Part shown: one piece after another, positions 1 to 12,156 of the stretch
Layout of the letters: each line of letters opens with the position of its first letter
Numbering within the stretch: position 1 is the first letter of the stretch
Program-made: the position numbers and the translations under genes
Virus record (IMG/VR): IMGVR_UViG_2802429247_000008
Coordinates: 1-12,156 of that record
DNA: 12,156 nt
Origin: a virus
Taxonomy: Duplodnaviria; Heunggongvirae; Uroviricota; Caudoviricetes
Strand: one strand, 5' to 3'
Notes under the pieces: generated by a model
What the model was told of the DNA's origin: nothing
Database searches by the model: none
Seen by the model: only the letters and a program-made list of their open reading frames with translations

Positions 1-531
1 TGAGGTGAGCATATCACCTCTGTTCAGGTGGCCAAATTCAGTGTGCCACTTCAGATTGAACGCAGCAGCAAGACGGCTGGCGGTATAGTTAATCCCCTCG
101 TTGCGTGCTTCCGCACGTACTTCAGCCAGGAAAGCATCGGTGGCTGGGGTTTGCGGCATCCTTCCGTCTATTGCGCAGATATACGCATCAGATAGTTCAT
201 CCTGCTCGCCATCAAACACGTAGCAACTCTGTACGATAAATTTATTCAGCCCCGCATTCTCCGCCGCAAGCGCAGCAAGATTAGTCTCCAGCTCTGCAAT
301 GCGTTTGCTTTGGGCTTCCCGTTCATCCAGCAGTGCCAGCACGGTAGCCGGATTGGCTGCTGCTATGAATCGCTTATTGGCGCGATTATCTGGTCCTGAG
401 CATGATGCTATGTAGTAATTTGCGTTCAGTCCGGCATCAGCAATTACCCCATAGTAATCATCAGAACACCATTCGCCAGGGGTTGCATTTTCTGCCGCCA
501 TTCGCAGTGCCTGGTAATTAATGTTGCTCAC
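1..531 (-). CDS. Phage protein, tentatively ead/Ea22-like; first 177 codons only, gene continues past the window start
   Basis: Minus-strand frame is open from 531 down to position 1. GTG at 529-531 is preceded by AGGAGG (revcomp of 538-543) with a 6-nt spacer; an in-frame ATG at 499-501 is an alternative start. Product begins VSNINYQALRMAAENATPGEW and has a coiled-coil-like stretch (DEREAQSKRIAELETNLAALAAENAGL). Family assignment is from memory and unverified. Confidence 0.55.
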   Translation of the reverse strand, partial: MSNINYQALRMAAENATPGEWCSDDYYGVIADAGLNANYYIASCSGPDNRANKRFIAAANPATVLALLDEREAQSKRIAELETNLAALAAENAGLNKFIVQSCYVFDGEQDELSDAYICAIDGRMPQTPATDAFLAEVRAEARNEGINYTASRLAAAFNLKWHTEFGHLNRGDMLTS

Positions 532-823
532 TGGTTGCCTCCTGAAAAATAACTGCATGCCCCAGCTTCTCCGCCAGTGCCAGTTCTGCCTTAGCGCCTG
601 CTGACCGCTGCCAGCCTTTCAGCATGTAAATCGCATCCACACAACGAATCATTGCCATGCAAATATCCATGTAGTGTGGCTGTGTCAGTCCGTCCGGAAG
701 TACTGCCGGACTTAAGACGGTATGCCCTTCCCGTTTCAGTTCCTCTTCCGCCTTGTGGAACGCCTCACGGTTGAAATTTTTATACCCGGTCATCGGACCA
801 GCGATATAAACCCTCACCCTCAC
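518..823 (-). CDS. DUF4406-family protein (nucleoside 2-deoxyribosyltransferase-like fold)
   Basis: 101-aa ORF. N-terminal YIAGPMTG motif followed by EGHTVLSP and a C-terminal LKGWQRSAGAKAELALA segment, the pattern I associate with DUF4406/Rcl-like proteins of lambdoid prophages. GTG start at 821-823 with AGGAGG 7 nt upstream; overlaps the stop of the upstream gene (GTGA). Confidence 0.78.
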   Translation of the reverse strand: MRVRVYIAGPMTGYKNFNREAFHKAEEELKREGHTVLSPAVLPDGLTQPHYMDICMAMIRCVDAIYMLKGWQRSAGAKAELALAEKLGHAVIFQEATSEQH

Positions 824-1236
824 GCCATCACCTCCTGAAAATTACCCTGATAAAACGCCAGCACACGCTGCATAACCTTGCTTTTCCGGCACTCGCGACA
901 GATTATGTTCTGACGTCTGTCGTAGCGGCGTATCTCTCCATCTGGTAATGAATAAATCAGGTCAGGATCGCTCTTTTTCTTCACCGCCGCTTTCGACATC
1001 TTTTCGATGGCTTTTATCCAGTCCTTACGCGCCTGCGCTGAAGGGAATATTCCATACCCTGAACCATATACAACACCACTGGCTACCAGCTCTTTCGTCA
1101 GAACTTCTATCAGATGTCTCGTCGCCCCAATTTCATTTTCCAGTTGTTTACGCGTTTTCCGACCATCTCTGCGTACCAGTTCCACAATGCGCGCCTTCAC
1201 TTCTTCCCGCTGTTCGGAAGTAAAAACTTTTGCCAC
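820..1236 (-). CDS. Hypothetical phage protein, 138 aa, possible winged-helix N-terminus
   Basis: Clean 138-aa ORF with GTG start at 1234-1236 and AGGAGG 4 nt upstream (revcomp of 1241-1246). Its stop overlaps the start of the DUF4406 gene. I recognise no family; the basic N-terminal third and a single CRECR motif are the only features. Confidence 0.7.
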   Translation of the reverse strand: MAKVFTSEQREEVKARIVELVRRDGRKTRKQLENEIGATRHLIEVLTKELVASGVVYGSGYGIFPSAQARKDWIKAIEKMSKAAVKKKSDPDLIYSLPDGEIRRYDRRQNIICRECRKSKVMQRVLAFYQGNFQEVMA

Positions 1237-1276
1237 AAGTCCTCCTGAAAATTACCTCATGATCTGAAATAAACAC

Positions 1277-2224
1277 TTACCCCCTGAAGCCCGGCGGAAT
1301 TTCGGTATCCGGTTCAGAAATGTGATTCACGCAACGCTGTACAGGCGAACGCCCCAGACGAATAACCAGCTCATCCCATTTTTCGCGAAGCTTTGACGGG
1401 CTCATGACGTTTTTTACCCAGAATGGATCCCGCTGTACCCGACCAAACATTTCGCAAATTTGTCTGTGAGTTCTGCCATCCAGCATCCGCATTGTGCGCA
1501 CATCATTGGCCCATGCAGTCCAGTTGGGTTCTTTCGGTCGCATGATTTCGCCATCATCGCTGGCAGCCTGCTCGTAAAGACTCACGATTCGTCCCCAGAT
1601 CCACTGCGCACACGCTAAATCTTCCTGGCTACCCCACTGGCGTTTTTTCGCACTGAACACAACCGCGTCAGGGTGTCGGGTTAAAAAATCCTGTTCAGCC
1701 GTCTGCGAGTCCGGTTGCGAAGCTTCCGGACGAAAAGATCTTTTATCTGACGGATCAGGTTTTAATACTGACGGATCGGGGCCAACCATCGCCCCCCTAT
1801 CCGGCTGTTTTTTATCAATGGTTGATCCATCAAAATTTGAGGGGTCAACCGTTGAGGGGGCAATATTTGACGGGTCATTTTTTGCCTGGCTAATTTTTCT
1901 TTTCGGTTTATATGCCTCACGCGCCGCCGCTGCTGCTGCTTCTAGTTTTTCCACATTAAGACGGTAGATATTGCTTACATTACGCCCACCGACCTTACGT
2001 TCCTCCTTCGTCAGCCAGCCGTTCTTTTCCAGTTCCGCTATCGCAGCTTTAACCGTTGATTCACTCTTTGCCCCAATCTGACGACGAATGGTCTCCACTG
2101 CAGGCCATGACACACCTTCGTCATTGCTGTAATCTGCAAGGCGAGCCATTACTGCCACCCTGGATAAGATCATGCCGGTGAAGGCGCACCCTTCCCAGAC
2201 AAGACCATGAAGCTTGCTGCTCAT
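1277..2224 (-). CDS. Phage replication initiator (HTH N-terminal domain, low-complexity linker, DnaT-like C-terminal region)
   Basis: 315-aa ORF with ATG at 2222-2224 and GGAG 7 nt upstream. N-terminus (GMILSRVAVMARLADYSNDEGVSWPAVETIRRQIGAKSESTVKAAIAELEKNGWL) resembles HTH replication/replisome-organiser proteins. An Ala-run and Pro/Ser/Asp-rich linker is encoded by the iteron-like DNA repeats. Position after the cro-like and ydaT genes matches an O-like role. Confidence 0.8.
   Translation of the reverse strand: MSSKLHGLVWEGCAFTGMILSRVAVMARLADYSNDEGVSWPAVETIRRQIGAKSESTVKAAIAELEKNGWLTKEERKVGGRNVSNIYRLNVEKLEAAAAAAREAYKPKRKISQAKNDPSNIAPSTVDPSNFDGSTIDKKQPDRGAMVGPDPSVLKPDPSDKRSFRPEASQPDSQTAEQDFLTRHPDAVVFSAKKRQWGSQEDLACAQWIWGRIVSLYEQAASDDGEIMRPKEPNWTAWANDVRTMRMLDGRTHRQICEMFGRVQRDPFWVKNVMSPSKLREKWDELVIRLGRSPVQRCVNHISEPDTEIPPGFRG
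1757..1886. repeat. Iteron-like repeats inside the replication gene (candidate origin of replication)
   Basis: Five direct copies of a 10-bp motif: TGACGGATCA 1757-1766, TGACGGATCG 1778-1787, TGAGGGGTCA 1847-1856, TGAGGGGGCA 1862-1871, TGACGGGTCA 1877-1886, at spacings of 21, 69, 15 and 15 bp. One inverted copy (TGATCCATCA, 1832-1841). An AT-rich stretch follows at 1887-1920. The layout is analogous to lambda ori inside gene O. Confidence 0.55.
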
Positions 2225-2247
2225 AAAAAACTCCGAACACCGTGCTT

Positions 2248-2673
2248 TTAGTGCATCACCAGGGCATTTCCCGCCGGACCACCACGATTCATCTGATTGA
2301 AACCAGCGATCGCCACTGCGACAAAATCATCAGCGTCTCTCACCAGTCGTTCCCGCGTCTCCACCAGCTCCCGAAAATAGGCTGAACTGTGGCTGCGCAT
2401 TCGGGCCACCAGCAGAGGTGGCATTGCTTTTTCGATCGCTGGTAACAACGCCTGAATTTTTTTAACCGCATCAGGGGTGTCTTTCTCCACCCAGCGGAAA
2501 ATCTTCTGAGTATTGCGAGCCAGGGCTTCTGGGTGTGAATCGTCGTACAGTTCCGGAAACGTCATACCCAGTTCAAAATAAGCCCGGGTTATTTCAGCTG
2601 CCGGAACTTTTTCTCCGTCCGGATGCGCCCAGGCATTCATCGCCATGCGGATGTGCTCATGCTTGATTTTCAT
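2248..2673 (-). CDS. ydaT: YdaT-family protein (CII-like regulator, historically annotated as a toxin)
   Basis: 141-aa ORF starting MKIKHEHI, directly downstream of and overlapping (ATGA at 2670-2673) the cro-like gene. Size, N-terminus and position match Rac YdaT. Confidence 0.72.
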   Translation of the reverse strand: MKIKHEHIRMAMNAWAHPDGEKVPAAEITRAYFELGMTFPELYDDSHPEALARNTQKIFRWVEKDTPDAVKKIQALLPAIEKAMPPLLVARMRSHSSAYFRELVETRERLVRDADDFVAVAIAGFNQMNRGGPAGNALVMH

Positions 2674-2897
2674 GAATCACTCTTCCTTTCGCTCTGAGTG
2701 GTATCCTTCTTTTTGTAAAGCTCTGGGTTCAAAGATAATTTTCCCTTGGAGTATGCAGCAGCTTCCGCAGCTCTCCCTTTCGGAACTATTTCACCGGGGC
2801 GCTTACGCCACATGTAAATAGCTTCGCGGGTTATCCCATAAAAATCAGCGACCCTCTGAACAGAGCCAAAAAACTGAACAAGTTCATCAACTCGCAT
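2670..2897 (-). CDS. Cro-like HTH regulator (YdaS family)
   Basis: 75-aa ORF transcribed divergently from the repressor. HTH-like segment VADFYGITREAIYMWRKRPGEIVP. ATG at 2895-2897 with AGGAGG 6 nt upstream (revcomp of 2904-2909). Confidence 0.7.
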   Translation of the reverse strand: MRVDELVQFFGSVQRVADFYGITREAIYMWRKRPGEIVPKGRAAEAAAYSKGKLSLNPELYKKKDTTQSERKSDS

Positions 2898-2993
2898 TTC
2901 ACCCTCCTAAAATCTAAGTATTTTTAGATTACAGGATAATTTTTTTTAGGTCAATGCGATCTAAAATAATTTATATTCAACTCGCGGGAGAAA
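2898..2993. promoter_or_regulatory. Divergent promoter/operator region between the cro-like and repressor genes (OR-like)
   Basis: 20-bp near-palindrome AATCTAAGTATTTTTAGATT at 2911-2930 and a further ATCTAAAAT half-site at 2959-2967. Candidate minus-strand promoter: -35 TTGACC (revcomp of 2949-2954), 17-bp spacer, -10 TAATCT (revcomp of 2926-2931) overlapping the palindrome. Candidate plus-strand -10 TATATT at 2972-2977 for the repressor. Confidence 0.55.
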
Positions 2994-3641
2994 ATGATGG
3001 AAAGCCTTGGCATCAGGCTTAAGAAACTCAGAAAAGATAAGGGACTCACCCAAGTAGAACTGGGTAAGCTTTCAGGCGTGACTGGGGTTACTATAGGGTA
3101 CTGGGAGAAAGATCTAAACGAACCCGGCAGCAAAGCTCTAAGTAAGTTAGCCCAAGCATTAGGAACTACTGAGTCCTATCTCCTGTATGGAGTATCGTCT
3201 CCTGAACTATCTTTTGTGCAGAGCAATCCAGGCACCAAGATCCCCTACTTTTCGTGGGGTGACGCGATTTCTTTCCTAATCTTAGAAGGAGAGAAAACAA
3301 TGGGAAATGTCGATAGGATCACCACATTCTTTGATGTAGTGGAAGGTGATTTTGCCGTTTCAATGCCTGATGACACTATGCATAACCCCTCAGGGTCGCC
3401 AAGTATCCCAGTTGGTGCCACTGTGATCCTAAGACCAGGAGAAAGTTATAAAAATGGCAGTATCGTCGCTGTAATAGTTCCAGATCCTCTTACAAATGAA
3501 CCGTCTATGACTATAAAAAAATTAGTTATTGATGGAAAACTTGTGTATTTAAGCCCTCTCAATCCGCGCTATCAATCATCCTTGCTTACGCCAGAGTGTA
3601 AAATTGTTGCCGTAGCAAAAGGTGTACAGTTCAACCTATAA
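2994..3641 (+). CDS. cI/LexA-like prophage repressor (N-terminal XRE HTH, C-terminal S24 peptidase domain)
   Basis: 215 aa. HTH at LTQVELGKLSGVTGVTIGYWEKDLNEP. C-terminal VEGDFAVSMPDD (Ser of the catalytic dyad) and MTIKKLVIDGKLVYLSPLNPRY (Lys of the dyad), closely resembling lambda cI [22 protein letters not shown]. Two tandem ATGs at 2994 and 2997. Confidence 0.85.
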   Translation: MMESLGIRLKKLRKDKGLTQVELGKLSGVTGVTIGYWEKDLNEPGSKALSKLAQALGTTESYLLYGVSSPELSFVQSNPGTKIPYFSWGDAISFLILEGEKTMGNVDRITTFFDVVEGDFAVSMPDDTMHNPSGSPSIPVGATVILRPGESYKNGSIVAVIVPDPLTNEPSMTIKKLVIDGKLVYLSPLNPRYQSSLLTPECKIVAVAKGVQFNL

Positions 3642-3663
3642 CCCTGCCATGTTCTTGAACTTA

Positions 3664-3690
3664 AGGTCGGTTATGCCGACCTTTTTTTTA
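3664..3690 (+). terminator. Rho-independent terminator downstream of the repressor gene
   Basis: Stem GGTCGG (3665-3670) and CCGACC (3676-3681) around a 5-nt loop, followed immediately by an 8-T run (3682-3689). Confidence 0.7.
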
Positions 3691-3708
3691 AATTAATTTA
3701 GATTCCTC

Positions 3709-3737
3709 TTGACTATAAAACTAAATACTTTTAGATT
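3709..3737 (+). promoter_or_regulatory. pL-like promoter with overlapping operator-like site (OL-like)
   Basis: -35 TTGACT (3709-3714), 17-bp spacer, -10 TAGATT (3732-3737). The 20-mer AAACTAAATACTTTTAGATT (3718-3737) matches the OR palindrome at 17 of 20 positions. An extra TTAGATT at 3698-3704. Confidence 0.45.
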
Positions 3738-3908
3738 TATTGCATGCCAACCCATCCCGTCCCCACAGAATGCAGGGCAATACTTCGAGTTACCAGGCAG
3801 TGGTCAGGGGTTAAGTAGCCAGCCCGAGGCGTATGAACATGACGGCGGGATTCAAATTTTGCAGTGCAGCAGTTAGTTCCGCCACCCGGCGTTAAGGGGA
3901 GAGATAAG

Positions 3909-4043
3909 ATGGTGCATTACGAAGTAGTTCAGTATTTGATGGATTGTTGCGGTATCACTTACAACCAGGCTGTGCAGGCTTTACGCAGCAACGACTGGGA
4001 TCTCTGGCAGGCAGAAGTCGCTATACGTAGCAACAAGATGTGA
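3909..4043 (+). CDS. ydaG: YdaG-like small protein (44 aa)
   Basis: ATG at 3909 preceded by GGGGAGAG. Product MVHYEVVQYLMDCCGITYNQAVQALRSNDWDLWQAEVAIRSNKM. Size and position (between repressor and ydaF/sieB) match Rac ydaG. Below the length cutoff of the supplied ORF track. Confidence 0.62.
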   Translation: MVHYEVVQYLMDCCGITYNQAVQALRSNDWDLWQAEVAIRSNKM

Positions 4044-4053
4044 GATTCGCAAA

Positions 4054-4209
4054 ATGCAAAAAATCGACCTCGGCAACAACGAATCCCTGGTGTGCGGCGT
4101 GTTCCCCAACCAGGATGGAACGTTCACTGCCATGACGTATACCAAAAGCAAAACATTTAAAACCGAAACTGGTGCGCGCCGATGGTTGGAGAAGCACACA
4201 GTAAGCTAA
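4054..4209 (+). CDS. ydaF: YdaF-like small protein (DUF1391, 51 aa)
   Basis: ATG at 4054. Product MQKIDLGNNESLVCGVFPNQDGTFTAMTYTKSKTFKTETGARRWLEKHTVS. Matches my recollection of Rac YdaF in size and position. Its stop overlaps the sieB stop convergently. Confidence 0.65.
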   Translation: MQKIDLGNNESLVCGVFPNQDGTFTAMTYTKSKTFKTETGARRWLEKHTVS

Positions 4210-4694
4210 CGATTAAAACGTCTACTCCTGCTGTTCCAGAATAACTTCATAAAATGGGAGTATTTTTCGGTGACGAGATAATAAGAACAGTTTGCGCTAT
4301 CACTCTGATGTTGAATGATGCCCTTCCGTTCTAATTTTTTCATAACCGGGTTACGGCAAGGAGAAGTGATAATAAGATTTCCTGTTTTAAGGAAATCTTT
4401 AAATACAGCGATTTCTTTCTCAGATAAACGAAGCAATACTCGTTGCTCTGGTAGTAATGAATAATGCTTTTGAATATGTGCTCGCAATCTTGAGAAGGAA
4501 ATGGCGACCACGAAAGAAAAGGCAAAAACGATAATCTGAAAGAGCCAAGATATTTCAGTATAAGCATTGAATGCGACAGTAAACTCTTTCGGTATCAGCC
4601 AGAGAGTGAGACCAAAAATGATAATCGTATACATAAGTCTTTCGAGTGGCTCGTTAGCAAAAAGTTTCAACAATGGAGTAAATACATCCAACAT
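4206..4694 (-). CDS. sieB: Superinfection exclusion protein B
   Basis: 162-aa product from ATG at 4692-4694 (MLDVFTPLLKLFANEPLERLMYTIIIFGLTLWLIP...), with hydrophobic membrane segments. The supplied ORF extends 41 codons further upstream to 4817, but that extension looks non-coding. Confidence 0.8.
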   Translation of the reverse strand: MLDVFTPLLKLFANEPLERLMYTIIIFGLTLWLIPKEFTVAFNAYTEISWLFQIIVFAFSFVVAISFSRLRAHIQKHYSLLPEQRVLLRLSEKEIAVFKDFLKTGNLIITSPCRNPVMKKLERKGIIQHQSDSANCSYYLVTEKYSHFMKLFWNSRSRRFNR

Positions 4695-4912
4695 ATCAAT
4701 AACTCTCAACTGTAAGGGTATTGAAATGTTAACACAAGCTCTCGCTGTAGGGGTATAGCCGAGACCACCGAAGCCCGGAGGTGGTGAAATAAAACCGGGC
4801 ACAACACGAAGGCGCATTTCCGATATCCATAAAGAGTCGGTCTTGTCTGTTAAATTTAAATGGTGGGAGTGCGCCTCCGGTTGTAAATAACGACATTGCT
4901 GTGTGTAGTCCT

Positions 4913-4960
4913 GGCGGCATCAGTTTTTTTCTTGAAGTTCGGCTGATGTCCGCCCTTTTT
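4913..4960 (+). terminator. Terminator-like hairpin plus T-run in the sieB/kilR divergent intergenic region
   Basis: Stem GGCGGCATCAG (4913-4923) pairs with CTGATG(T)CCGCC (4943-4954) with one bulge, followed by CTTTTT (4955-4960). The 19-nt loop is large for an intrinsic terminator, so confidence is low. Confidence 0.3.
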
Positions 4961-5135
4961 AAAGTGAATTTTGTGATGCGGTGAATGCGGCTAAGCGCAC
5001 GTGGCACAGTTAAAAGTCATGTTAGTCCTTATTGGTTTGGGTGGGAAAGCCGACTGTAATTGTTAACTGGTTGCAGTCACCTGGAGGCACCAGGCACCGC
5101 ATCAACAAAGTTCATTTGTAAAAATGGAGATAATT

Positions 5136-5357
5136 ATGATTGCACATCACTTCGGAACTGATGAAATACCACGTCAGTGTGTGACTCCTGGCGATTATGT
5201 TCTTCATGAAGGCCGGACATATATTGCCTCGGCAAACAATATTAAAAAGCGAAAACTATATATTCGTAACCTGACCACAAAAACATGCATTACTGACTGC
5301 ATGATTAAAGTTTTCCTCGGTCGTGATGGTTTACCTGTAAAGGCGGAATCATGGTGA
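5136..5357 (+). CDS. kilR: KilR-like killing / cell-division inhibitor protein (73 aa)
   Basis: ATG at 5136 with GGAG 6 nt upstream; the supplied ORF starts 4 codons earlier at 5124 with no SD. Product [35 protein letters not shown].... Position between sieB and ydaE matches Rac kilR. Sequence identity is from memory only. Confidence 0.6.
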
Positions 5358-5527
5358 TGACTAAGAAAATAAAATGTGCTTACCACCTTTGCAATAAAGG
5401 GGTTGAAGAAAGCAAAAGCATTAAAAGACCACTTCATTTCATGCGTGGAGTTATACCAACGACGGAAATGAAAAAATATTGTAGTGAAATCTGTGCCGAA
5501 AAAGACAAGATGGCACACGAACTTTAA
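5357..5527 (+). CDS. ydaE: YdaE-like small Cys-rich (zinc-binding) protein, 56 aa
   Basis: ATG at 5357 overlaps the kilR stop (ATGA). Product [56 protein letters not shown] carries C-x4-C ... C-x3-C. Below the ORF-track length cutoff. Confidence 0.62.
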   Translation: MTKKIKCAYHLCNKGVEESKSIKRPLHFMRGVIPTTEMKKYCSEICAEKDKMAHEL

Positions 5528-5601
5528 TTAACTGACTATGCGAAACTGAATTCATGCCAGCAATGGCAGGGATTCGCTCAACCTTAATTAAGGAGAAAAA
5601 C

Positions 5602-5877
5602 ATGATTACTAATTATGAAACCACTATTGTAACTACTGATGACATTGTTCACGAGGTTAATCTGGAAGGAAAGCGTATTGGCTACGTGATTAAAACAGAA
5701 AATAAAGAAACCCCATTCACTGTAGTTGATATCGACGGTCCATCAGGCAACGTTAAAACACTTCACGAAGGTGTCAAAAAAATGAGCCTGGTGCATATCG
5801 GAAAGAATCTGCCCACAGAAAAAAAAGCCGAATTTCTGGCAACTCTGATTGCAATGAAATTAAAAGGTGAAATCTGA
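5602..5877 (+). CDS. racC: RacC-like protein (91 aa)
   Basis: ATG at 5602 with AGGAG 6 nt upstream; the supplied ORF starts at 5554 with no SD. Product MITNYETTIVTTDDIVHEVNLEGKRIGYVIKTENKETPF.... Lies immediately upstream of recE, as in Rac. Confidence 0.6.
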   Translation: MITNYETTIVTTDDIVHEVNLEGKRIGYVIKTENKETPFTVVDIDGPSGNVKTLHEGVKKMSLVHIGKNLPTEKKAEFLATLIAMKLKGEI

Positions 5878-5882
5878 AAGAA

Positions 5883-5907
5883 ATAGCCTGCGTATGGCGC
5901 AGGCTAT
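5883..5907. repeat. Perfect 10-bp inverted repeat between racC and recE
   Basis: ATAGCCTGCG (5883-5892) and CGCAGGCTAT (5898-5907) around a 5-nt loop. No downstream T-run on the plus strand, so not a canonical intrinsic terminator. Confidence 0.5.
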
Positions 5908-5978
5908 GAACAGTGTGTATCCGGCAAGATCATTCACTGAACAAAACGAATTTTAATCTGAGTTGAGGTTAAAAAACA

Positions 5979-8900
5979 ATGAGCACAAAACCACTCTTCC
6001 TGTTACGGAAAGCGAAAAAATCATCCGGTGAACCTGACGTCGTCCTGTGGGCAAGCGACGATTTTGAATCGACCTGTGCCACTCTGGACTACCTGATCGT
6101 TAAGTCAGGTAAAAAACTGAGCAGCTATTTTAAAGCTGTTGCCACGAATTTTCCTGTCGTTAATGACCTGCCCCCTGAAGGTGAGATCGATTTTACCTGG
6201 AGTGAACGCTATCAACTCAGCAAAGACTCCATGACCTGGGAACTAAAATCGGGAGCAGCGCCAGACGACGTTCACCATCAGGAGAATGCTCAGGAAACCG
6301 AAGAACTGACGGGAGGGCAGGAAGAAAACACACTGGCAGACGCTCACGGGGATTGCCAGGATTGCGAAGTTTCTGTATCTACTTTGCGGTTCACACAGCG
6401 TCTTCTGCACATTTTTACCTATGCGGCCGGGGATCGGAAATACCTGCATCATGCCACCCGAGAACAACGCGAACACATTACTGCTCTTGAGATGGATCAG
6501 GAAAACAGCTATGTCCAGAATCTGCTGTTGGCCATACGCGGCATGGCAGAACCGACAACTCTGGATAATGCCGCCCTGCTCCGCCTGACTGATGCAATTA
6601 AGGGGGTTTTCTCTATCACGAAAAAACATCAGCCCTATGAATTTAAGAATTTCATTTCAGCCTGGCTGGATACCGAACACATTGATCGCGGTCTTCTGAC
6701 AAAAGAATGGCGAAAAGGGAATCGTGTTTCACGCATCACTCGCACGGCTTCCGGTGCTAATGCTGGCGGCGGGAACCTCACCGATCGCGGCGAAGGTTTC
6801 GTCCACGATCTGACGTCACTGGCGCGCGATGTAGCCACTGGCGTACTGGCCCGTTCAATGGACGTGGACATCTATAACCTTCATCCGGCACACGCTAAAC
6901 GCATTGAGGAAATTATCGCTGAAAATAAACCGCCCTTTTCTGTTTTCCGCGACAAATTCATCACCATGCCTGGCGGGCTGGATTATTCACGCGCCATCGT
7001 GGTTGCGTCCGTGAAAGAAGCACCAATTGGGATCGAGGTCATCCCCGCGCACGTCACTGAATATCTGAACAAAGTACTGACTGAAACCGATCATGCCAAC
7101 CCTGATCCGGAAATCGTGGATATTGCCTGCGGTCGCTCCTCTGCCCCGATGCCGCAGCGTGTAACAGAAGAAGGAAAACAGGATGATGAAGAAAAACCGC
7201 AACCATCTGAAACAACGGCAGATGAACAGGGAGAGGCTGAAACAATGGAACCGGACGCAACTGAACATCATCAGGACACGCAGCCGCTGGATGCTCAGTC
7301 ACAGGTAAATTCTGTTGATGCGAAATATCAGGAACTGCGGGCAGAACTCCATGAAGCCCGGAAAAACATTCCATCAAAAAATCCTGTCGATGCCGATAAA
7401 TTGCTTGCTGCATCACGTGGTGAATTTGTTGACGGAATTAGCGACCCGAACGATCCGAAATGGGTTAAGGGGATCCAGACTCGCGATTCTGTGTACCAGA
7501 ACCAGCCAGAAACGGAAAAAACCAGCCCGGATGTGAAACAACCTGAGGCAGTAGTGCAACAGGAACCGGAAATAGTCTGCAATGCCTGCGGTCAGACTGG
7601 CGGAGATAACTGCCCTGACTGTGGGGCGGTGACGGGCGACGCAACATACCAGGAAACATTCGATGAAGAGAATCAGGTTGAAGCTAAGGAAAAAGATCCG
7701 GTGGAAATGGAAGGCGCTGAACATCCGCACAATGAGAATGCTGGCAGCGATCCGCATCGTGATTGCAGTGATGAAACTGGTGAAGCGTCAGCTCCTGTAG
7801 CAACTGAAATCATGTGGCCGTCATATTTCGAGCCTGGCCGCTATGAAAACCTCCCGAACGAGGTTTATCACTCCGCCAACGGAATAAGCAGCACGATGCT
7901 GAAGGATGCCCGTATCAGCCTGATGTATTACCACGGACGGCACATTGCCGGAACTATTCCGAACGAGGAAAGTGATGCACTGCTGCGTGGGCGGATCATT
8001 CACAGCTATGTTCTGGAAACGGATAAATTCGCTGATGAATATGCCATTCCGGTACCGGTTCCTGAATATGTGGTTACTACTTCTAGCGAACTGATCGCCA
8101 TCATTAAAAAACACAATGCCAGTCTGCCAGCACTGATGACACCAGAGCAGATGAAAGAGTGGATCGAAAGCTACAACAGCACTCTTATACAGCCACTGTC
8201 TGTAAGTGCCGGGGCCGAAGAAACAGGCATCCTTTACGGTTCGCTTCCGGTGGAATTTCGGCGTATTCCTGAGGGGGAAAAACACACAGCATCAGCAATG
8301 AAAGCCTGTATTAAAGAATACAACGCAAGCCTCCCTCCTCTGTTGAAAACCAGTGGAGCACGGGAGCAGCTTCTGGATCAAATTGAAACTGTAGACCCAG
8401 AACTGGCAAAAAAAGAACGTGCTAAATCTTTGCCTTACAACATCAGTGGCACAAAAGAGCAATTAACCGAAATCGCACGGAAAATTCGCCCGGAACTGGT
8501 GACACTGGAGGACTGGCAAAAACGCCAGCAAGAAGAAAATGCCGGGAAAACGTTTATCAGTCCGGAGATGTATGAACAGGCAAAAAATATTCACGCGGCA
8601 CTGCAAAACAATACCGATGCAGCAAGGCTACTCAACCACCCGGATCGCAAATCTGAAATCAGCTATTTCGGGTTTGATGAAGAAACCGGGCTGGAAATCA
8701 GGGTCCGTCCTGATATCGAAATCCGGCTGCCATACGAAAGCATTTGCGCTGACGTGAAGTCAGTCAGCCTCGGTTATGTGCGACAGGAACGACTTAAAGA
8801 TCGCCTGCACCGTGAAATTATTGAGCGTGATTATCACCTCAGCGCCGCAATGTATTGCGATGTGGCAAACCTGGACAAATTTTTCTGGATCTTCGTCAAC

Positions 8901-9101
8901 AAAGATGCTGGCTATCACTGGGTGGCAGTCGTGGAAGCCTCGCAGGAACTCCTGGAACTTGGTCGACAGGAATATCGCCGGACGCTACGCCAGATAAACG
9001 AAGCCCTGGAGACAAACAACTGGCCAGCACCGATTACCGAAAGTTATACCGACGAATTAAACGACTTTGATCTTCGTCGTCTTGAAGCACTGAGCATCTG
9101 A
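5979..9101 (+). CDS. recE: Exodeoxyribonuclease VIII (RecE-family 5'-3' dsDNA exonuclease), 1040 aa
   Basis: N-terminus [65 protein letters not shown] is the RecE start as I recall it. Long acidic linker. C-terminal PD-(D/E)xK-type motifs ([22 protein letters not shown]). SD GAGG upstream of ATG 5979. Confidence 0.88.
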
Positions 9102-9112
9102 GGAAGGACACA

Positions 9113-10165
9113 ATGAACGAATTAACTCAACAAGAAAATATTAACTCTAATGTTGCGGTTTTCAGCCCTCAGTCCCTGGCTGCAATTCAGACATTTTCCC
9201 AGGTAATGGCTTCCGGCATGGCTACTGTACCGGAACACCTCCGGGGAAATCCATCAGACTGCATGGCCATCACCATGCAGGCGATGCAGTGGCAAATGAA
9301 CCCTTACGCAGTAGCTCAGAAAACTTTCGTTGTGAATGGTGTGCTCGGATATGAAGCGCAACTGGTTAATGCCGTAATCAGTACTCGTGGGCCGCTAACC
9401 GGGCGTATTGAATATGACTGGTTCGGGCCGTGGGAAAAAATTATCGGGAAATTTGAAATCAGGAAGAGCGACAAAGGGAAAGAATATCGTGTACCTGGCT
9501 GGAAGCTGGCCGATGAAAACGGGATCGGTGTTCGTGTCCAGGCAACACTACGCGGCGAAAGTAAACCACGCGTACTGGAATTACTTCTGGCGCAGGCCAG
9601 AACACGTAACTCAACGCTATGGGCCGACGATCCTCGCCAGCAGCTTGCCTATCTAGCGCTGAAACGCTGGGCGCGCCTTTATTGCCCCGAAGTGATTCTT
9701 GGAGTGTACACCAGGGACGAACTGGACGAGCCACAGGAAAAAATCATTAATCCGGTTCAGGAACATAAAAACACTTCCGCTTGCCGCGCGGAACGTGAAA
9801 CAACAATTATTGAGCAGGATGCCGGGGAAAACTGGATCGATGCTTTCCGTGAACGTATTGAGCAGGCACAAAGCACCGGGGAAACAACAGCACTTCGCCA
9901 GGAAGTGGAAGATCATAAAAATACACTTGGCGCTCTCTATACGGAACTTAAAGGAAAAGTGGTTCAGCGTCATCACCGTCTCAATGCTATTGCCCGTATC
10001 GAGAAGATGATAAATGACCTACCTTCTTCAGGTGATCCAGAAGCAGAACAAAAATTTACTGCTCTGGAAAATACGCTGAATGCTGCCCGGCCACATCTGG
10101 GTGAATTATATGAGGCGTATAAAACGACACTGACAGATATGAAACCAGAATATATCGGCTCCTGA
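9113..10165 (+). CDS. Single-strand annealing protein of the RecT/Red-beta superfamily (Red-beta-like), 350 aa
   Basis: Immediately downstream of recE (11-nt gap, SD GAGGAAGGA). The segment WADDPRQQLAYLALKRWARLYCPEVILGVYTRDELDE resembles lambda Red-beta WQSHPKRMLRHKAMIQCARLAFGFAGIYDKDEAE. It does not resemble K-12 RecT as I remember it. Confidence 0.7.
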   Translation: MNELTQQENINSNVAVFSPQSLAAIQTFSQVMASGMATVPEHLRGNPSDCMAITMQAMQWQMNPYAVAQKTFVVNGVLGYEAQLVNAVISTRGPLTGRIEYDWFGPWEKIIGKFEIRKSDKGKEYRVPGWKLADENGIGVRVQATLRGESKPRVLELLLAQARTRNSTLWADDPRQQLAYLALKRWARLYCPEVILGVYTRDELDEPQEKIINPVQEHKNTSACRAERETTIIEQDAGENWIDAFRERIEQAQSTGETTALRQEVEDHKNTLGALYTELKGKVVQRHHRLNAIARIEKMINDLPSSGDPEAEQKFTALENTLNAARPHLGELYEAYKTTLTDMKPEYIGS

Positions 10166-10175
10166 TATTGACTTT

Positions 10176-10213
10176 GGCGGTGTAGCCTCACCGCCATCAC
10201 AAAATTTTATTTT
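10176..10213 (+). terminator. Hairpin with distal T-rich tract after the annealase gene (weak terminator or attenuator candidate)
   Basis: Stem GGCGGTG (10176-10182) and CACCGCC (10189-10195) around a 6-nt loop. The T-rich tract AAAATTTTATTTT starts 5 nt later, so it is not a textbook terminator. Confidence 0.3.
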
Positions 10214-10228
10214 ATGAGAGAAAAGACA

Positions 10229-10423
10229 ATGCGGTATGAAAAAGTCAAACCATGCCCTTTTTGTGGTTGTCCATCAGTAACGGTGAAAGCCATTTCAGGA
10301 TATTACCGCGCGAAGTGTAACGGATGCGAATCCCGAACCGGCTATGGTGGAAGTGAAAAAGAAGCACTCGAACGATGGAATAAACGAACCACTGGAAATA
10401 ATAATGGAGGTGTTCATGTATAA
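10229..10423 (+). CDS. ralR: Restriction alleviation protein (Lar/RalR family), 64 aa
   Basis: Product MRYEKVKPCPFCGCPSVTVKAISGYYRAKCNGCESRTGYGGSEKEALERWNKRT has the CPFCG ... CNGC zinc-ribbon typical of Lar. The supplied ORF starts 5 codons upstream at 10214; the ATG at 10229 is chosen by homology. Confidence 0.8.
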   Translation: MRYEKVKPCPFCGCPSVTVKAISGYYRAKCNGCESRTGYGGSEKEALERWNKRTTGNNNGGVHV

Positions 10424-10604
10424 AATTACCGCCACTATTGAAAAGGAAGGTGGCACTCCTACTAACTGGACAAGGTACTCAAAAACAAAATTAACCAAAT
10501 CAGAATGCGAAAAAATGCTCTCAGGTAAAAAAGAAGCAGGCGTTTCCAGAGAGCAGAAAGTAAAACTGATAAATTTTAATTGCGAGCAACTTCAGTCCTC
10601 GTGA
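10416..10604 (+). CDS. ydaC: YdaC-like protein (DUF1187), 62 aa
   Basis: ATG at 10416 with GGAGG 5 nt upstream; overlaps the ralR 3' end by 8 nt. Product MYKITATIEKEGGTPTNWTRYSKTKLTKSECEKMLSGKKEAGVSREQKVKLINFNCEQLQSS. The supplied ORF 10344-10604 carries an N-terminal extension I consider spurious. Confidence 0.62.
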   Translation: MYKITATIEKEGGTPTNWTRYSKTKLTKSECEKMLSGKKEAGVSREQKVKLINFNCEQLQSS

Positions 10605-10703
10605 ATTGCATTGTATTCAAATTAAAACTTCATAGCTGATTATTAATAATCAACATCGGGCGTCAATTTCAGTCTAACATTGGCGCCTGCCAGAGGTGAT
10701 GCG

Positions 10704-10919
10704 ATGGCACAAGTAATCTTTAATGAAGAGTGGATGGTTGAATACGGCCTGATGCTTCGCACTGGTCTGGGGGCCAGACAAATTGAAGCATACCGCCAGA
10801 ACTGTTGGGTGGAAGGCTTCCACTTCAAACGAGTATCTCCTTTAGGGAAGCCAGACAGTAAGCGAGGGATTATCTGGTACAACTATCCAAAGATAAATCA
10901 GTTTATCAAAGACTCATGA
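10704..10919 (+). CDS. xis: Excisionase-like protein (Rac YdaQ/XisR type), 71 aa
   Basis: ATG at 10704 with GAGGTG 4 nt upstream. Product [49 protein letters not shown].... Ends 1 nt before the integrase start. Confidence 0.72.
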
Positions 10920-10920
10920 T

Positions 10921-12156
10921 ATGTCTAAATTACCAACAGGTGTCGAGATTCGAGGTAAATACATTCGCATCTGGTTCATGTTTCGAGGAAAACGATGTCG
11001 GGAAACATTGAAAGGCTGGGAGGTTACTAACAGTAACATTAAAAAAGCCGGGAATTTAAGAGCGTTGATAGTTCATGAAATCAATTCCGGTGAATTTGAG
11101 TATTTAAGACGTTTCCCCCAGTCCAGCACTGGGGCAAAAATGGTGACAACGAGGGTCATAAAAACGTTCGGGGAGCTTTGTGATATCTGGACAAAAATTA
11201 AAGAGACAGAGTTAACAACAAACACAATGAAGAAAACGAAATCACAATTAAAAACACTCAGGATAATAATTTGTGAGAGTACCCCAATATCACATATTCG
11301 TTATAGCGATATCTTAAACTACCGGAATGAACTGCTGCATGGAGAAACGCTTTACCTGGATAATCCAAGATCCAACAAAAAAGGAAGAACCGTGCGCACA
11401 GTTGATAACTATATCGCCCTGCTCTGTTCGTTGTTACGTTTTGCGTATCAGTCGGGATTTATATCAACCAAACCATTTGAAGGAGTAAAAAAATTACAGC
11501 GAAACAGAATAAAGCCTGATCCGTTATCTAAAACAGAATTCAATGCATTAATGGAAAGTGAAAAAGGACAGAGCCAGAACTTGTGGAAATTTGCCGTTTA
11601 CTCCGGGCTTCGTCACGGGGAACTGGCTGCTCTGGCGTGGGAGGATGTGGATTTCGAGAAGGGAATTGTGAATGTCAGAAGAAACCTGACGATACTTGAT
11701 ATGTTCGGTCCCCCAAAAACAAATGCGGGGATTCGGACGGTAACACTACTGCGGCCTGCTATTGAAGCACTGAAGGAGCAATACAAACTAACCGGGCATC
11801 ATCGCAAAAGCGAAATCACTTTTTATCATCGGGAGTACGGCAGAACCGAAAAGCAAAAACTGCATTTTGTTTTCATGCCCAGGGTGTGTAACGGAAAACA
11901 GAAACCTTATTACTCGGTAAGCAGTCTGGGGGCGAGATGGAATGCAGCAGTAAAACGTGCTGGTATTCGCCGCCGTAATCCGTACCATACGCGGCATACT
12001 TTTGCCTGCTGGTTGTTGACGGCAGGAGCGAACCCGGCATTTATAGCCAGCCAGATGGGGCATGAAACTGCGCAGATGGTGTATGAAATTTACGGTATGT
12101 GGATTGATGACATGAACGACGAACAGGTAGCTATGTTGAATGCGCGGTTATCGTAG
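10921..12156 (+). CDS. intR: Tyrosine-family site-specific integrase (Rac IntR-like), 411 aa, complete
   Basis: C-terminal catalytic-domain motifs (LRHGELAALAWEDVDF; NPYHTRHTFACWLLTAGANPAFIASQMGHETAQMVYEIYGMW). ATG at 10921 sits 1 nt after the xis stop. The TAG stop is the final triplet of the window. Confidence 0.9.
   Translation: MSKLPTGVEIRGKYIRIWFMFRGKRCRETLKGWEVTNSNIKKAGNLRALIVHEINSGEFEYLRRFPQSSTGAKMVTTRVIKTFGELCDIWTKIKETELTTNTMKKTKSQLKTLRIIICESTPISHIRYSDILNYRNELLHGETLYLDNPRSNKKGRTVRTVDNYIALLCSLLRFAYQSGFISTKPFEGVKKLQRNRIKPDPLSKTEFNALMESEKGQSQNLWKFAVYSGLRHGELAALAWEDVDFEKGIVNVRRNLTILDMFGPPKTNAGIRTVTLLRPAIEALKEQYKLTGHHRKSEITFYHREYGRTEKQKLHFVFMPRVCNGKQKPYYSVSSLGARWNAAVKRAGIRRRNPYHTRHTFACWLLTAGANPAFIASQMGHETAQMVYEIYGMWIDDMNDEQVAMLNARLS

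Follow-up and report, generated by a model that had tools for sequence, protein, structure and literature searches.

The question raised by this locus is whether a RecE-type exonuclease has been joined to an annealase other than the RecT found beside it in Escherichia coli K-12, and if so, which part of the exonuclease came along with that annealase. The locus lies in a stretch of 12,156 nucleotides (nt) of viral DNA (Caudoviricetes; IMG/VR record IMGVR_UViG_2802429247_000008, positions 1 to 12,156), hereafter the window. It represents the early region of an E. coli prophage of the Rac type. Two genes are at issue: recE, which codes for an exodeoxyribonuclease VIII of 1040 amino acids (aa), and the gene immediately downstream, which codes for a 350-aa single-strand annealing protein that will be called the annealase. 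The original prediction for this stretch, made from its sequence, placed the two open reading frames (ORFs) at exactly the coordinates found here. It proposed that the nuclease domain and the annealase had been swapped as a module, and that the annealase was Red-beta-like rather than RecT-like.

In our reading the two genes, which lie in the early-left operon of the prophage, very probably encode a RecET-type phage recombinase of two components, with a working half (the annealase and residues 608-1040 of RecE) that is the Gifsy-type allele and not the K-12 allele. As will be seen below, the swap holds up well, and the family assignment of the annealase has to be worded more carefully than was first proposed.

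Evidence for the exchange of one module

The window was compared with the Rac prophage of K-12 by blastn. Three blocks were found to be nearly identical (97.2% at 3742-6280, 96.2% at 6684-7799, and 96.0% at 10175-12156), and no DNA match to K-12 Rac was obtained at 6281-6683 or at 7800-10174. The longer of these unmatched blocks begins at codon 608 of recE, ends 9 nt past the stop codon of the annealase gene, and measures 2375 bp in the window versus 1640 bp in K-12. Because the flanks keep 96-97% identity to K-12 Rac while similarity across the block is undetectable, the block is best explained by a cassette exchange. The predicted exchange of the nuclease domain and the annealase as one module is thus strongly supported by the DNA comparison. 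Either allele, that of the window or that of K-12, could be the derived one, since the data do not decide the direction of the exchange.

The borders of the cassette deserve a closer description. The original prediction had set the left border at residue 741; the similarity in fact breaks between residues 607 and 608 (nt 7799/7800), about 134 residues upstream. It is here that the crystallized nuclease domain of RecE begins, as residue 5 of the chain in structure 3H4R aligns with K-12 residue ~610. On the right side, the similarity to K-12 resumes at 10175, at the base of a hairpin between the genes. A terminator scan did not call this hairpin an intrinsic terminator; it may have a regulatory role or mark a recombination hotspot.

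Both alleles of the module coexist in E. coli behind one N-terminal RecE region. Among 5426 complete E. coli genomes, the K-12 allele was found in 1750 and the window allele in 193. Several RefSeq E. coli chromosomes contain the stretch 7780-10165 at 100% identity, and in them the Prokaryotic Genome Annotation Pipeline (PGAP) names the products “recE: exodeoxyribonuclease VIII” and “RecT family recombinase”; the recE gene as a whole is also 100% identical to that of several RefSeq E. coli genomes. The pair is not unusual, as is seen from its frequency, its existing annotation, and its match to the Gifsy recET type described below. The exchange is lambdoid mosaicism of the ordinary sort and stays within a known kind, and the cassette is a common, already annotated variant.

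The remainder of recE is mosaic as well. Its N-terminus is that of a RecE, as had been predicted: the Pfam family Exonuc_VIII (PF06630) matches residues 2-182 with an E value of 1.8e-66, and the protein passes the NCBIfam equivalog NF007259 with 1377.9 bits (cutoff 1269). The greater size was also noted correctly, with the window protein exceeding the K-12 RecE (866 aa, taken from NC_000913) by 174 aa. In the protein alignment, residues 1 to ~100 and 236 to ~605 are ~95% identical to K-12 RecE, and residues ~101-235 are divergent; this N-terminal patch gave no credible Pfam match at E<=10. The patch is present in 282 of the 5426 genomes, a count that differs from the 193 of the C-terminal cassette, and recE therefore consists of at least four exchangeable segments and is multiply mosaic. 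The middle region has full-length matches in ~1900 E. coli genomes. Fragments of it (window ~7390-7780) recur at 83-92% identity in other prophage genes named “exonuclease” or “3'-5' exonuclease”, which suggests a linker region common to different nuclease genes. We know of no function for the N-terminal ~560 residues of K-12 RecE.

The nuclease domain and its insertion

The exchanged domain retains what defines a RecE nuclease. By sequence, residues 601-1040 match the crystal structure 3H4R with an E value of 1.9e-7, and the RecE fold and the catalytic His/Asp/Asp/Lys set are both present in this C-terminal PD-(D/E)XK domain. Residues H675, D912, D925, and K927 align with H652, D748, D759, and K761 of K-12 RecE, which we take to be the residues assigned to the active site in the 3H4R structure. 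In 17 homologues the two Asp residues and the Lys (D312, D325, and K327 in domain numbering) are invariant, and the His (H75) is nearly so. The domain is otherwise very different from that of K-12, with ~25-29% identity, and from residue ~606 on the catalytic core alone aligns, around a large insertion; the predicted dissimilarity of the C-terminal nuclease region to K-12 is well founded in this respect (~29% core identity).

The insertion lies between the catalytic His and the first catalytic Asp, which are 237 aa apart in the window and 96 aa apart in K-12-type domains. Among the related loci introduced below, this spacing is 237-238 aa in 56, 139 aa in five, each from a different genus (L036, L046, L058, L061, and L079), and 288 aa in one (L035). 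Such length variation is consistent with the gain or loss of whole repeat units. Internal repeats were indeed detected by hhalign, both between residues 697-736 and 768-807 (P 2.5e-10) and between 768-807 and 808-850 (P 4.8e-6), and AlphaFold2 (AF2) predicts the insertion to be all-helical with a predicted local distance difference test score (pLDDT) of 80-92. The insertion gave no credible Pfam match at E<=10. It matches just 60 representatives out of 1.84 billion cluster representatives, mostly proteins of 780-1341 aa with the match at ~430-1080, which are RecE-like by length and position in a library that carries no annotation.

No description of this repeat-built insertion was found, and it is the sole feature of the locus of which this can be said. 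It is a lineage-specific addition, and our best guess is that it contacts DNA or supports oligomerization. Its repeats carry the motifs I-K-E-Y-N-A-S-L-P and S-G-T/A-K/R-E-Q-L, which we presume to resemble SAP/HeH DNA-binding motifs, a likeness that the Pfam search at E<=10 did not return. A more specific proposal, tentative and on balance rather unlikely, is that the insertion, which is conserved and among the representatives found is nearly confined to one position in large RecE-like proteins, forms an undescribed accessory module of tandem helix-turn-helix-like repeats, possibly a SAP/HeH-like clamp on double-stranded DNA that alters end-binding, processivity, or substrate choice.

Family placement and structure of the annealase

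The Pfam family RecT (PF03837) matches residues 30-209 of the annealase with 147.5 bits, far above the gathering threshold of 24 bits. In a calibration with known proteins, K-12 RecT scored 188.9 bits and the Red-beta protein of lambda (Bet) 115.6 bits; since PF03837 matches the two alike, it defines the superfamily and not RecT proper. The more specific models separate the annealase from both. It has no match, even at E<=10, to TIGR00616 or NF007351 for RecT or to TIGR01913 for Bet, whereas in the controls K-12 RecT reached 415.7 bits on TIGR00616 and 464.5 on NF007351, and lambda Bet reached 169.5 on TIGR01913. The PHROG families are likewise distinct, with the annealase in phrog_561 (E 1e-145), RecT in 148, and Bet in 252. 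Its secondary matches, phrog_10056 and phrog_4171, are found for Bet too and are absent from the matches of RecT.

Direct comparison gives a slight lean. BLASTP finds no significant similarity between the annealase and K-12 RecT (E 0.36), and the match of the annealase to lambda Bet (E 0.02) is confined to a single 34-residue motif. Seventy-nine of 81 members of the annealase family score better against Bet than against RecT, and a PERD(I/V)TP linker motif is common to Bet and some of the family members. Profiles were compared by hhalign with reference alignments of 83 members for Bet and nine for RecT, the latter including eight phage RecT loci; searches of viral contigs with K-12 RecT and lambda Bet had returned near-identical copies only, and were unusable for family profiles. 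The annealase gave P ~0.002 and a probability of 7-13% against Bet, and P 0.11-0.31 against RecT; RecT and Bet compared with each other gave P 0.008-0.02. A profile of 29 close annealase homologues run against the PDB sequences reached neither the Red-beta nor the Listeria RecT structure, and a search of the same sequences with the annealase alone found nothing.

The AF2 model of the annealase shows a core, a disordered linker, and a helical C-terminal domain, the last of which gave no credible Pfam match at E<=10. Foldseek ranks 7UJL, the N-terminal domain of Red-beta, first among the matches of the model (E 0.049, probability 0.87), and no RecT structure is among the top 50. Taken together, these comparisons bring the annealase nearer to Red-beta than to RecT, though by a small margin only. 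The predicted Red-beta-like character survives to the extent of this marginal lean; the label of Bet orthologue is not justified for a protein that fails TIGR01913 and falls into a PHROG of its own.

The names given to its relatives point to a third branch. The annealase belongs to a cluster (P0001) whose 855 member sequences bear the name “RecT family recombinase”; “enterohemolysin” is the name of some homologues at 57-70% identity, in NCBI and UniRef entries and in Klebsiella phage records. EHAP1-like proteins have been described as a subgroup of the superfamily apart from Red-beta and RecT, present in E. coli and Salmonella (PMC8093625). The annealase probably belongs to this EHAP1/enterohemolysin-like branch, a placement made on naming and taxonomic match and not on direct alignment.

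Pairing in related loci

Relatives of the annealase were sought in one genome per species; 323 loci encode them, and the best 80 were examined. At 62 of these 80 loci, a full-length annealase homologue has directly upstream of it an intact RecE-like ORF (574-1326 aa) with the same nuclease type. Full-length homologues (350-373 aa, with the same C-terminal type) almost always follow a large RecE-like ORF with an insertion-type domain (~50% identity, ~430 aa). The genes are thus adjacent and co-oriented, and the pairing is conserved across genomes, as expected of a cognate pair. In five related loci recE is truncated or split (L008, L012, L017, L022, and L056).

Homologues that share only the core carry other C-terminal tails and have other partners. 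Four of them (L033, L070, L071, and L082) stand beside a standalone nuclease of 273-291 aa that shares 52% identity with the nuclease domain of K-12 RecE. At three Pseudomonas loci (L063, L073, and L081), a lambda-Exo-type nuclease is encoded downstream of the annealase relative; the Pseudomonas relatives of the core have short, unrelated C-terminal tails. At six loci (L067, L074, L075, L077, L080, and L083), no nuclease was recognized among the + strand ORFs of at least 80 aa in the 6-kb flanks with our own reference set. Over the 80 loci, the type of the annealase C-terminal domain largely tracks the type of the neighboring nuclease, be it K-12-type standalone, lambda-Exo-type, or insertion-type RecE. 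From this co-variation we infer a specific interaction between annealase and nuclease. The premise of the original prediction, that RecE goes with RecT and Exo with Bet only, turns out to be too strict: in numerous phages and genomes, members of this annealase family stand beside or are fused with RecE-type nucleases, and in Pseudomonas they stand beside lambda-Exo-type nucleases.

The insertion was also considered as a docking site for the annealase C-terminal domain. This is unlikely, as that C-terminal domain type persists at loci where the insertion is shorter or absent. Because the two do not strictly co-occur, the insertion is apparently dispensable for pairing with annealases of this kind.

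The annealase has relatives in 84 phage records, including HK225, mEp237, SPN3UB, Gifsy-2, and phiV10. The cassette itself is carried by Rac-SA53, a complete phage genome deposit, with a nuclease domain 98.9% identical to that of the window and an annealase 64% identical; given this disparity, mosaicism extends inside the annealase core. In the DNA alignment with Rac-SA53 (L003), there is no match across window positions 9380-9637 versus 7625-7906 of Rac-SA53, with ~94% identity on both sides. PP818812.1 (Actinobacillus phage vB_Apl-pPE4) carries the cassette at 793-3178 with 98.1% DNA identity and an identical (100%) annealase; it is apparently an E. coli prophage sequence whose assignment to Actinobacillus pleuropneumoniae is doubtful. 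A 1270-bp contig of Actinomadura rugatobispora (L025) codes for an enterobacterial-type annealase, 57% identical, which is probably an assembly contamination.

Comparison with known systems and a working model

The closest known systems are those of the Salmonella prophages Gifsy-1 and Gifsy-2. Like the window, they have a large RecE, in which an N-terminal region resembling Exonuc_VIII is combined with a nuclease domain that bears the insertion; next come an annealase of 350-370 aa with the same C-terminal type and then xis and int. The Gifsy-2 proteins STM1009 and STM1008 are 51.5% identical to the window in the nuclease domain, 44% in the N-terminal part, and 48.6% in the annealase; a protein named “Gifsy-1 prophage RecE” is 52% identical. 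The difference lies in the N-terminal 600 residues, which in the window are the K-12 Rac version (~96% DNA identity), making the window gene a Rac/Gifsy-type chimera. The recET orthologues of both Gifsy prophages are under repression in the lysogen, and their mutational activation suppresses the recombination defects of recB mutants (PMC3121763), which is genetic support for a recombination function of this type of cassette.

With K-12 Rac the window shares the type of prophage, the integrase, and the gene order racC-recE-annealase-ralR-xis-int, together with the nuclease fold, the catalytic residues, and most of the RecE N-terminal region. It differs in the insertion-bearing nuclease domain and in the annealase, which belongs to another family than RecT and exceeds it by 81 aa, with a C-terminal domain that is structured. 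The junction of the two genes differs as well: recE and recT overlap in K-12, and the corresponding genes of the window are 11 nt apart.

The Exo/Red-beta system of lambda is comparable in being a two-component system of exonuclease and annealase, and the annealase of the window follows the layout of Red-beta, with a core, a linker, and a helical C-terminal domain; Red-beta (7UJL) is also the marginally nearest solved relative of the core. However, the nuclease of the window is RecE-type (DUF3799) and that of lambda is YqaJ/lambda-Exo-type, the nuclease gene comes first in the window whereas bet precedes exo in lambda, and the annealase is not recognized by the Bet equivalog. A different kind of comparison is offered by the epsilon15-like phage phiV10, whose PhiV10p37 protein (“putative recET”) joins a core 61% identical to that of the annealase over 208 aa with a RecE-type nuclease in a single polypeptide of 586 aa. 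Its nuclease is of the K-12 type (48% identical) without the insertion, there is no large N-terminal RecE region, and the C-terminal tail is another one. This natural fusion shows a functional coupling of the annealase core with a RecE-type nuclease.

Family knowledge suggests how the pair would work. The C-terminal PD-(D/E)XK domain of RecE would digest the 5' strand at an end of double-stranded DNA, and the N-terminal core of the annealase would coat the resulting 3' tail and anneal it to complementary single-stranded DNA. The C-terminal helical domain of the annealase would dock on its cognate nuclease, and possibly on the single-stranded DNA-binding protein (SSB), by analogy with Red-beta. 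The C-terminal domain of Red-beta was crystallized bound to the lambda Exo trimer, and the same publication reports an interaction with SSB as well (PMC6393309). The cassette itself very probably arose by recombination between related prophages, with one crossover in the conserved linker that directly precedes the nuclease domain and another in the intergenic hairpin upstream of ralR/lar. With crossovers in these positions, the nuclease and the annealase move together, as partners that match.

Weighing the alternatives

Several points weigh against the reading of a Gifsy-type working half in a RecET-kind recombinase. That the annealase docks on the nuclease with its C-terminal domain is proposed by analogy only. 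Two loci, L060 and L062, are exceptions to the tracking described above and join the C-terminal domain type of the window with a standalone K-12-type nuclease that has no insertion, and the five loci with a shorter insertion keep the same C-terminal domain type; the partner code is therefore not simple. The AF2 models of the annealase and of the RecE nuclease are moderately confident overall, each with a pLDDT of ~70. Finally, the recET genes of K-12 are silent in the lysogen, and the pair in the window may be likewise.

Other explanations have to be set beside this reading. If there had been no swap, the locus would be a K-12 RecET that diverged gradually, with an ordinary RecT as its annealase; the domain order collinear with K-12 RecE, the passing of the NCBIfam RecE equivalog, and the RecT family labels from Pfam and PGAP could all be quoted in its favor. 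Gradual divergence is refuted by the blastn comparison, in which identity falls from 96% to undetectable at one point and is back at 96% 2.4 kb further on, and a protein that lacks BLASTP similarity to K-12 RecT and fails both RecT models (which K-12 RecT passes with 416 and 465 bits) is hardly an ordinary RecT; neither does divergence account for two alleles behind the same N-terminal region in 1750 versus 193 genomes. The original prediction had named a close RecT homologue beside a collinear RecE as the outcome that would remove the swap. Of this, the collinear domain order was found, yet the DNA identity is lost from 7800 on, and the annealase is not a close RecT homologue. We consider the absence of a swap extremely improbable. 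A true Bet orthologue captured beside RecE is less easily dismissed but still very improbable. The 34-residue motif, the preference for Bet among the family members, the Foldseek top match 7UJL, the shared linker motif, and the secondary PHROG matches all lean toward Bet; these are outweighed by the failure on TIGR01913 at a threshold as loose as E<=10, the separate PHROG (561 vs 252), the low probability of 7-13% in the profile comparison, the family profile that finds no Red-beta in the PDB, a C-terminal domain unrelated to that of Bet and ~60 aa longer, and the published separation of EHAP1-like proteins from both Red-beta and RecT (PMC8093625).

Two further possibilities concern function. 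The name “enterohemolysin”, borne by homologues at 57-70% identity, might be taken to mean that the 350-aa protein is a virulence or cytolytic factor and no recombination protein at all. The strong Pfam RecT match, the position of the gene, always beside or fused with that of a recombination nuclease, and the recombination phenotype of the Gifsy recET genes leave this barely credible, and no toxin-like family was matched in Pfam, PHROGs, or NCBIfam, no prediction of signal peptides or membrane segments having been made. The name goes back to phage fragments cloned in the 1990s that had a haemolytic phenotype. That the cassette is a decaying, functionless remnant is suggested by the cryptic state of K-12 Rac with its silent recET, and by the five related loci with a truncated or split recE. 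In the window, however, the two ORFs are intact, with catalytic residues that are (nearly) invariant; across genera, at ~50% identity, lengths as well as the 237-aa spacing are maintained, the annealase cluster has 855 member sequences, and the same cassette is found in the complete phage genome deposit of Rac-SA53. A remnant is thus very improbable, and an intact recombinase with a Gifsy-type working half remains our preferred reading.

The prophage setting and the features of the locus

The features of the window are collected in Table 1. The immunity and replication region (window 1-3741) is unrelated in DNA to K-12 Rac, with the exception of a 30-nt match at 2650-2679. The repressor in this region is a CI-like protein with a helix-turn-helix and an S24 peptidase domain, and not RacR. 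No promoter-like or terminator-like site was found by scanning the + strand from 5400 to 10165. This, together with the gap of only 11 nt between the co-oriented genes and the Shine-Dalgarno-like sequence ahead of the second one, makes co-transcription of recE and the annealase gene likely.

Table 1. Features of the window (coordinates in nt of the 12,156-nt stretch; aa, amino acids)
Feature	Position	Strand	Basis or remark
CI-like repressor with S24 peptidase domain	2994-3641	+	
sieB, YdaT/CII-like gene, O-like replication gene		-	
recE (exodeoxyribonuclease VIII), intact mosaic gene, 1040 aa	5979-9101	+	PF06630 and PF12684; NF007259
RecE N-terminal segment common to K-12 Rac	5979-6280	+	inside blastn block 3742-6280, 97.2%
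First mosaic patch in RecE, aa ~101-235	6281-6683	+	without blastn match to K-12; poor protein alignment
RecE middle region, aa ~236-607, common to K-12 Rac	6684-7799	+	96.2% DNA identity
Exchanged RecE-type PD-(D/E)XK nuclease domain, aa 608-1040	7800-9101	+	
Catalytic residues H675 (8001-8003), D912 (8712-8714), D925 (8751-8753), K927 (8757-8759)	8001-8759 (span)	+	
Repeat-built helical insertion, aa ~697-850, ~141 aa extra versus K-12	8067-8528	+	His-to-Asp spacing, hhalign, AF2
Shine-Dalgarno-like GAGGAAGG	9100-9107	+	5 nt before annealase ATG; overlaps recE stop codon; read from sequence
Single-strand annealing protein (annealase), 350 aa, RecT/Red-beta superfamily, probably EHAP1-like branch	9113-10165	+	PF03837; phrog_561
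Annealase core domain, aa 1-193	9113-9691	+	Pfam RecT match 30-209; AF2 core residues 20-193
Predicted disordered linker, aa 194-237	9692-9823	+	pLDDT <50, residues 194-238
Annealase C-terminal helical domain, aa 238-350, proposed partner-binding	9824-10162	+	all-helical, pLDDT 85-90 (238-347)
Hairpin GGCGGTG-tagcct-CACCGCC, perfect 7-bp stem, 6-nt loop	10176-10195	+	right junction; upstream of Lar/RalR-like gene
Lar/RalR-like gene, then DUF1187 gene	downstream of annealase gene	+	
IntR-type integrase	10921-12156	+	

Significance

The annealase family, its pairing with RecE-type nucleases, and, through Gifsy, the recombination function are already on record, and the current understanding of these systems is not overturned. 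What the locus provides is a natural example in which the unit exchanged among lambdoid prophages is a nuclease domain plus its annealase, cut out at a domain boundary inside one ORF, with the large N-terminal part of RecE acting as an interchangeable carrier. It also corrects the rule that sets RecE-RecT against Exo-Bet: one family of annealase cores is found with two kinds of RecE-type nuclease, with lambda-Exo-type nucleases, or fused to its nuclease, and its C-terminal tail changes with the partner. The pair with the insertion-bearing nuclease is a candidate for recombineering in E. coli. If the insertion did serve as a DNA clamp, the pair could represent a recombinase native to E. coli and independent of both K-12 RecET and lambda Red, possibly with other recombineering properties.

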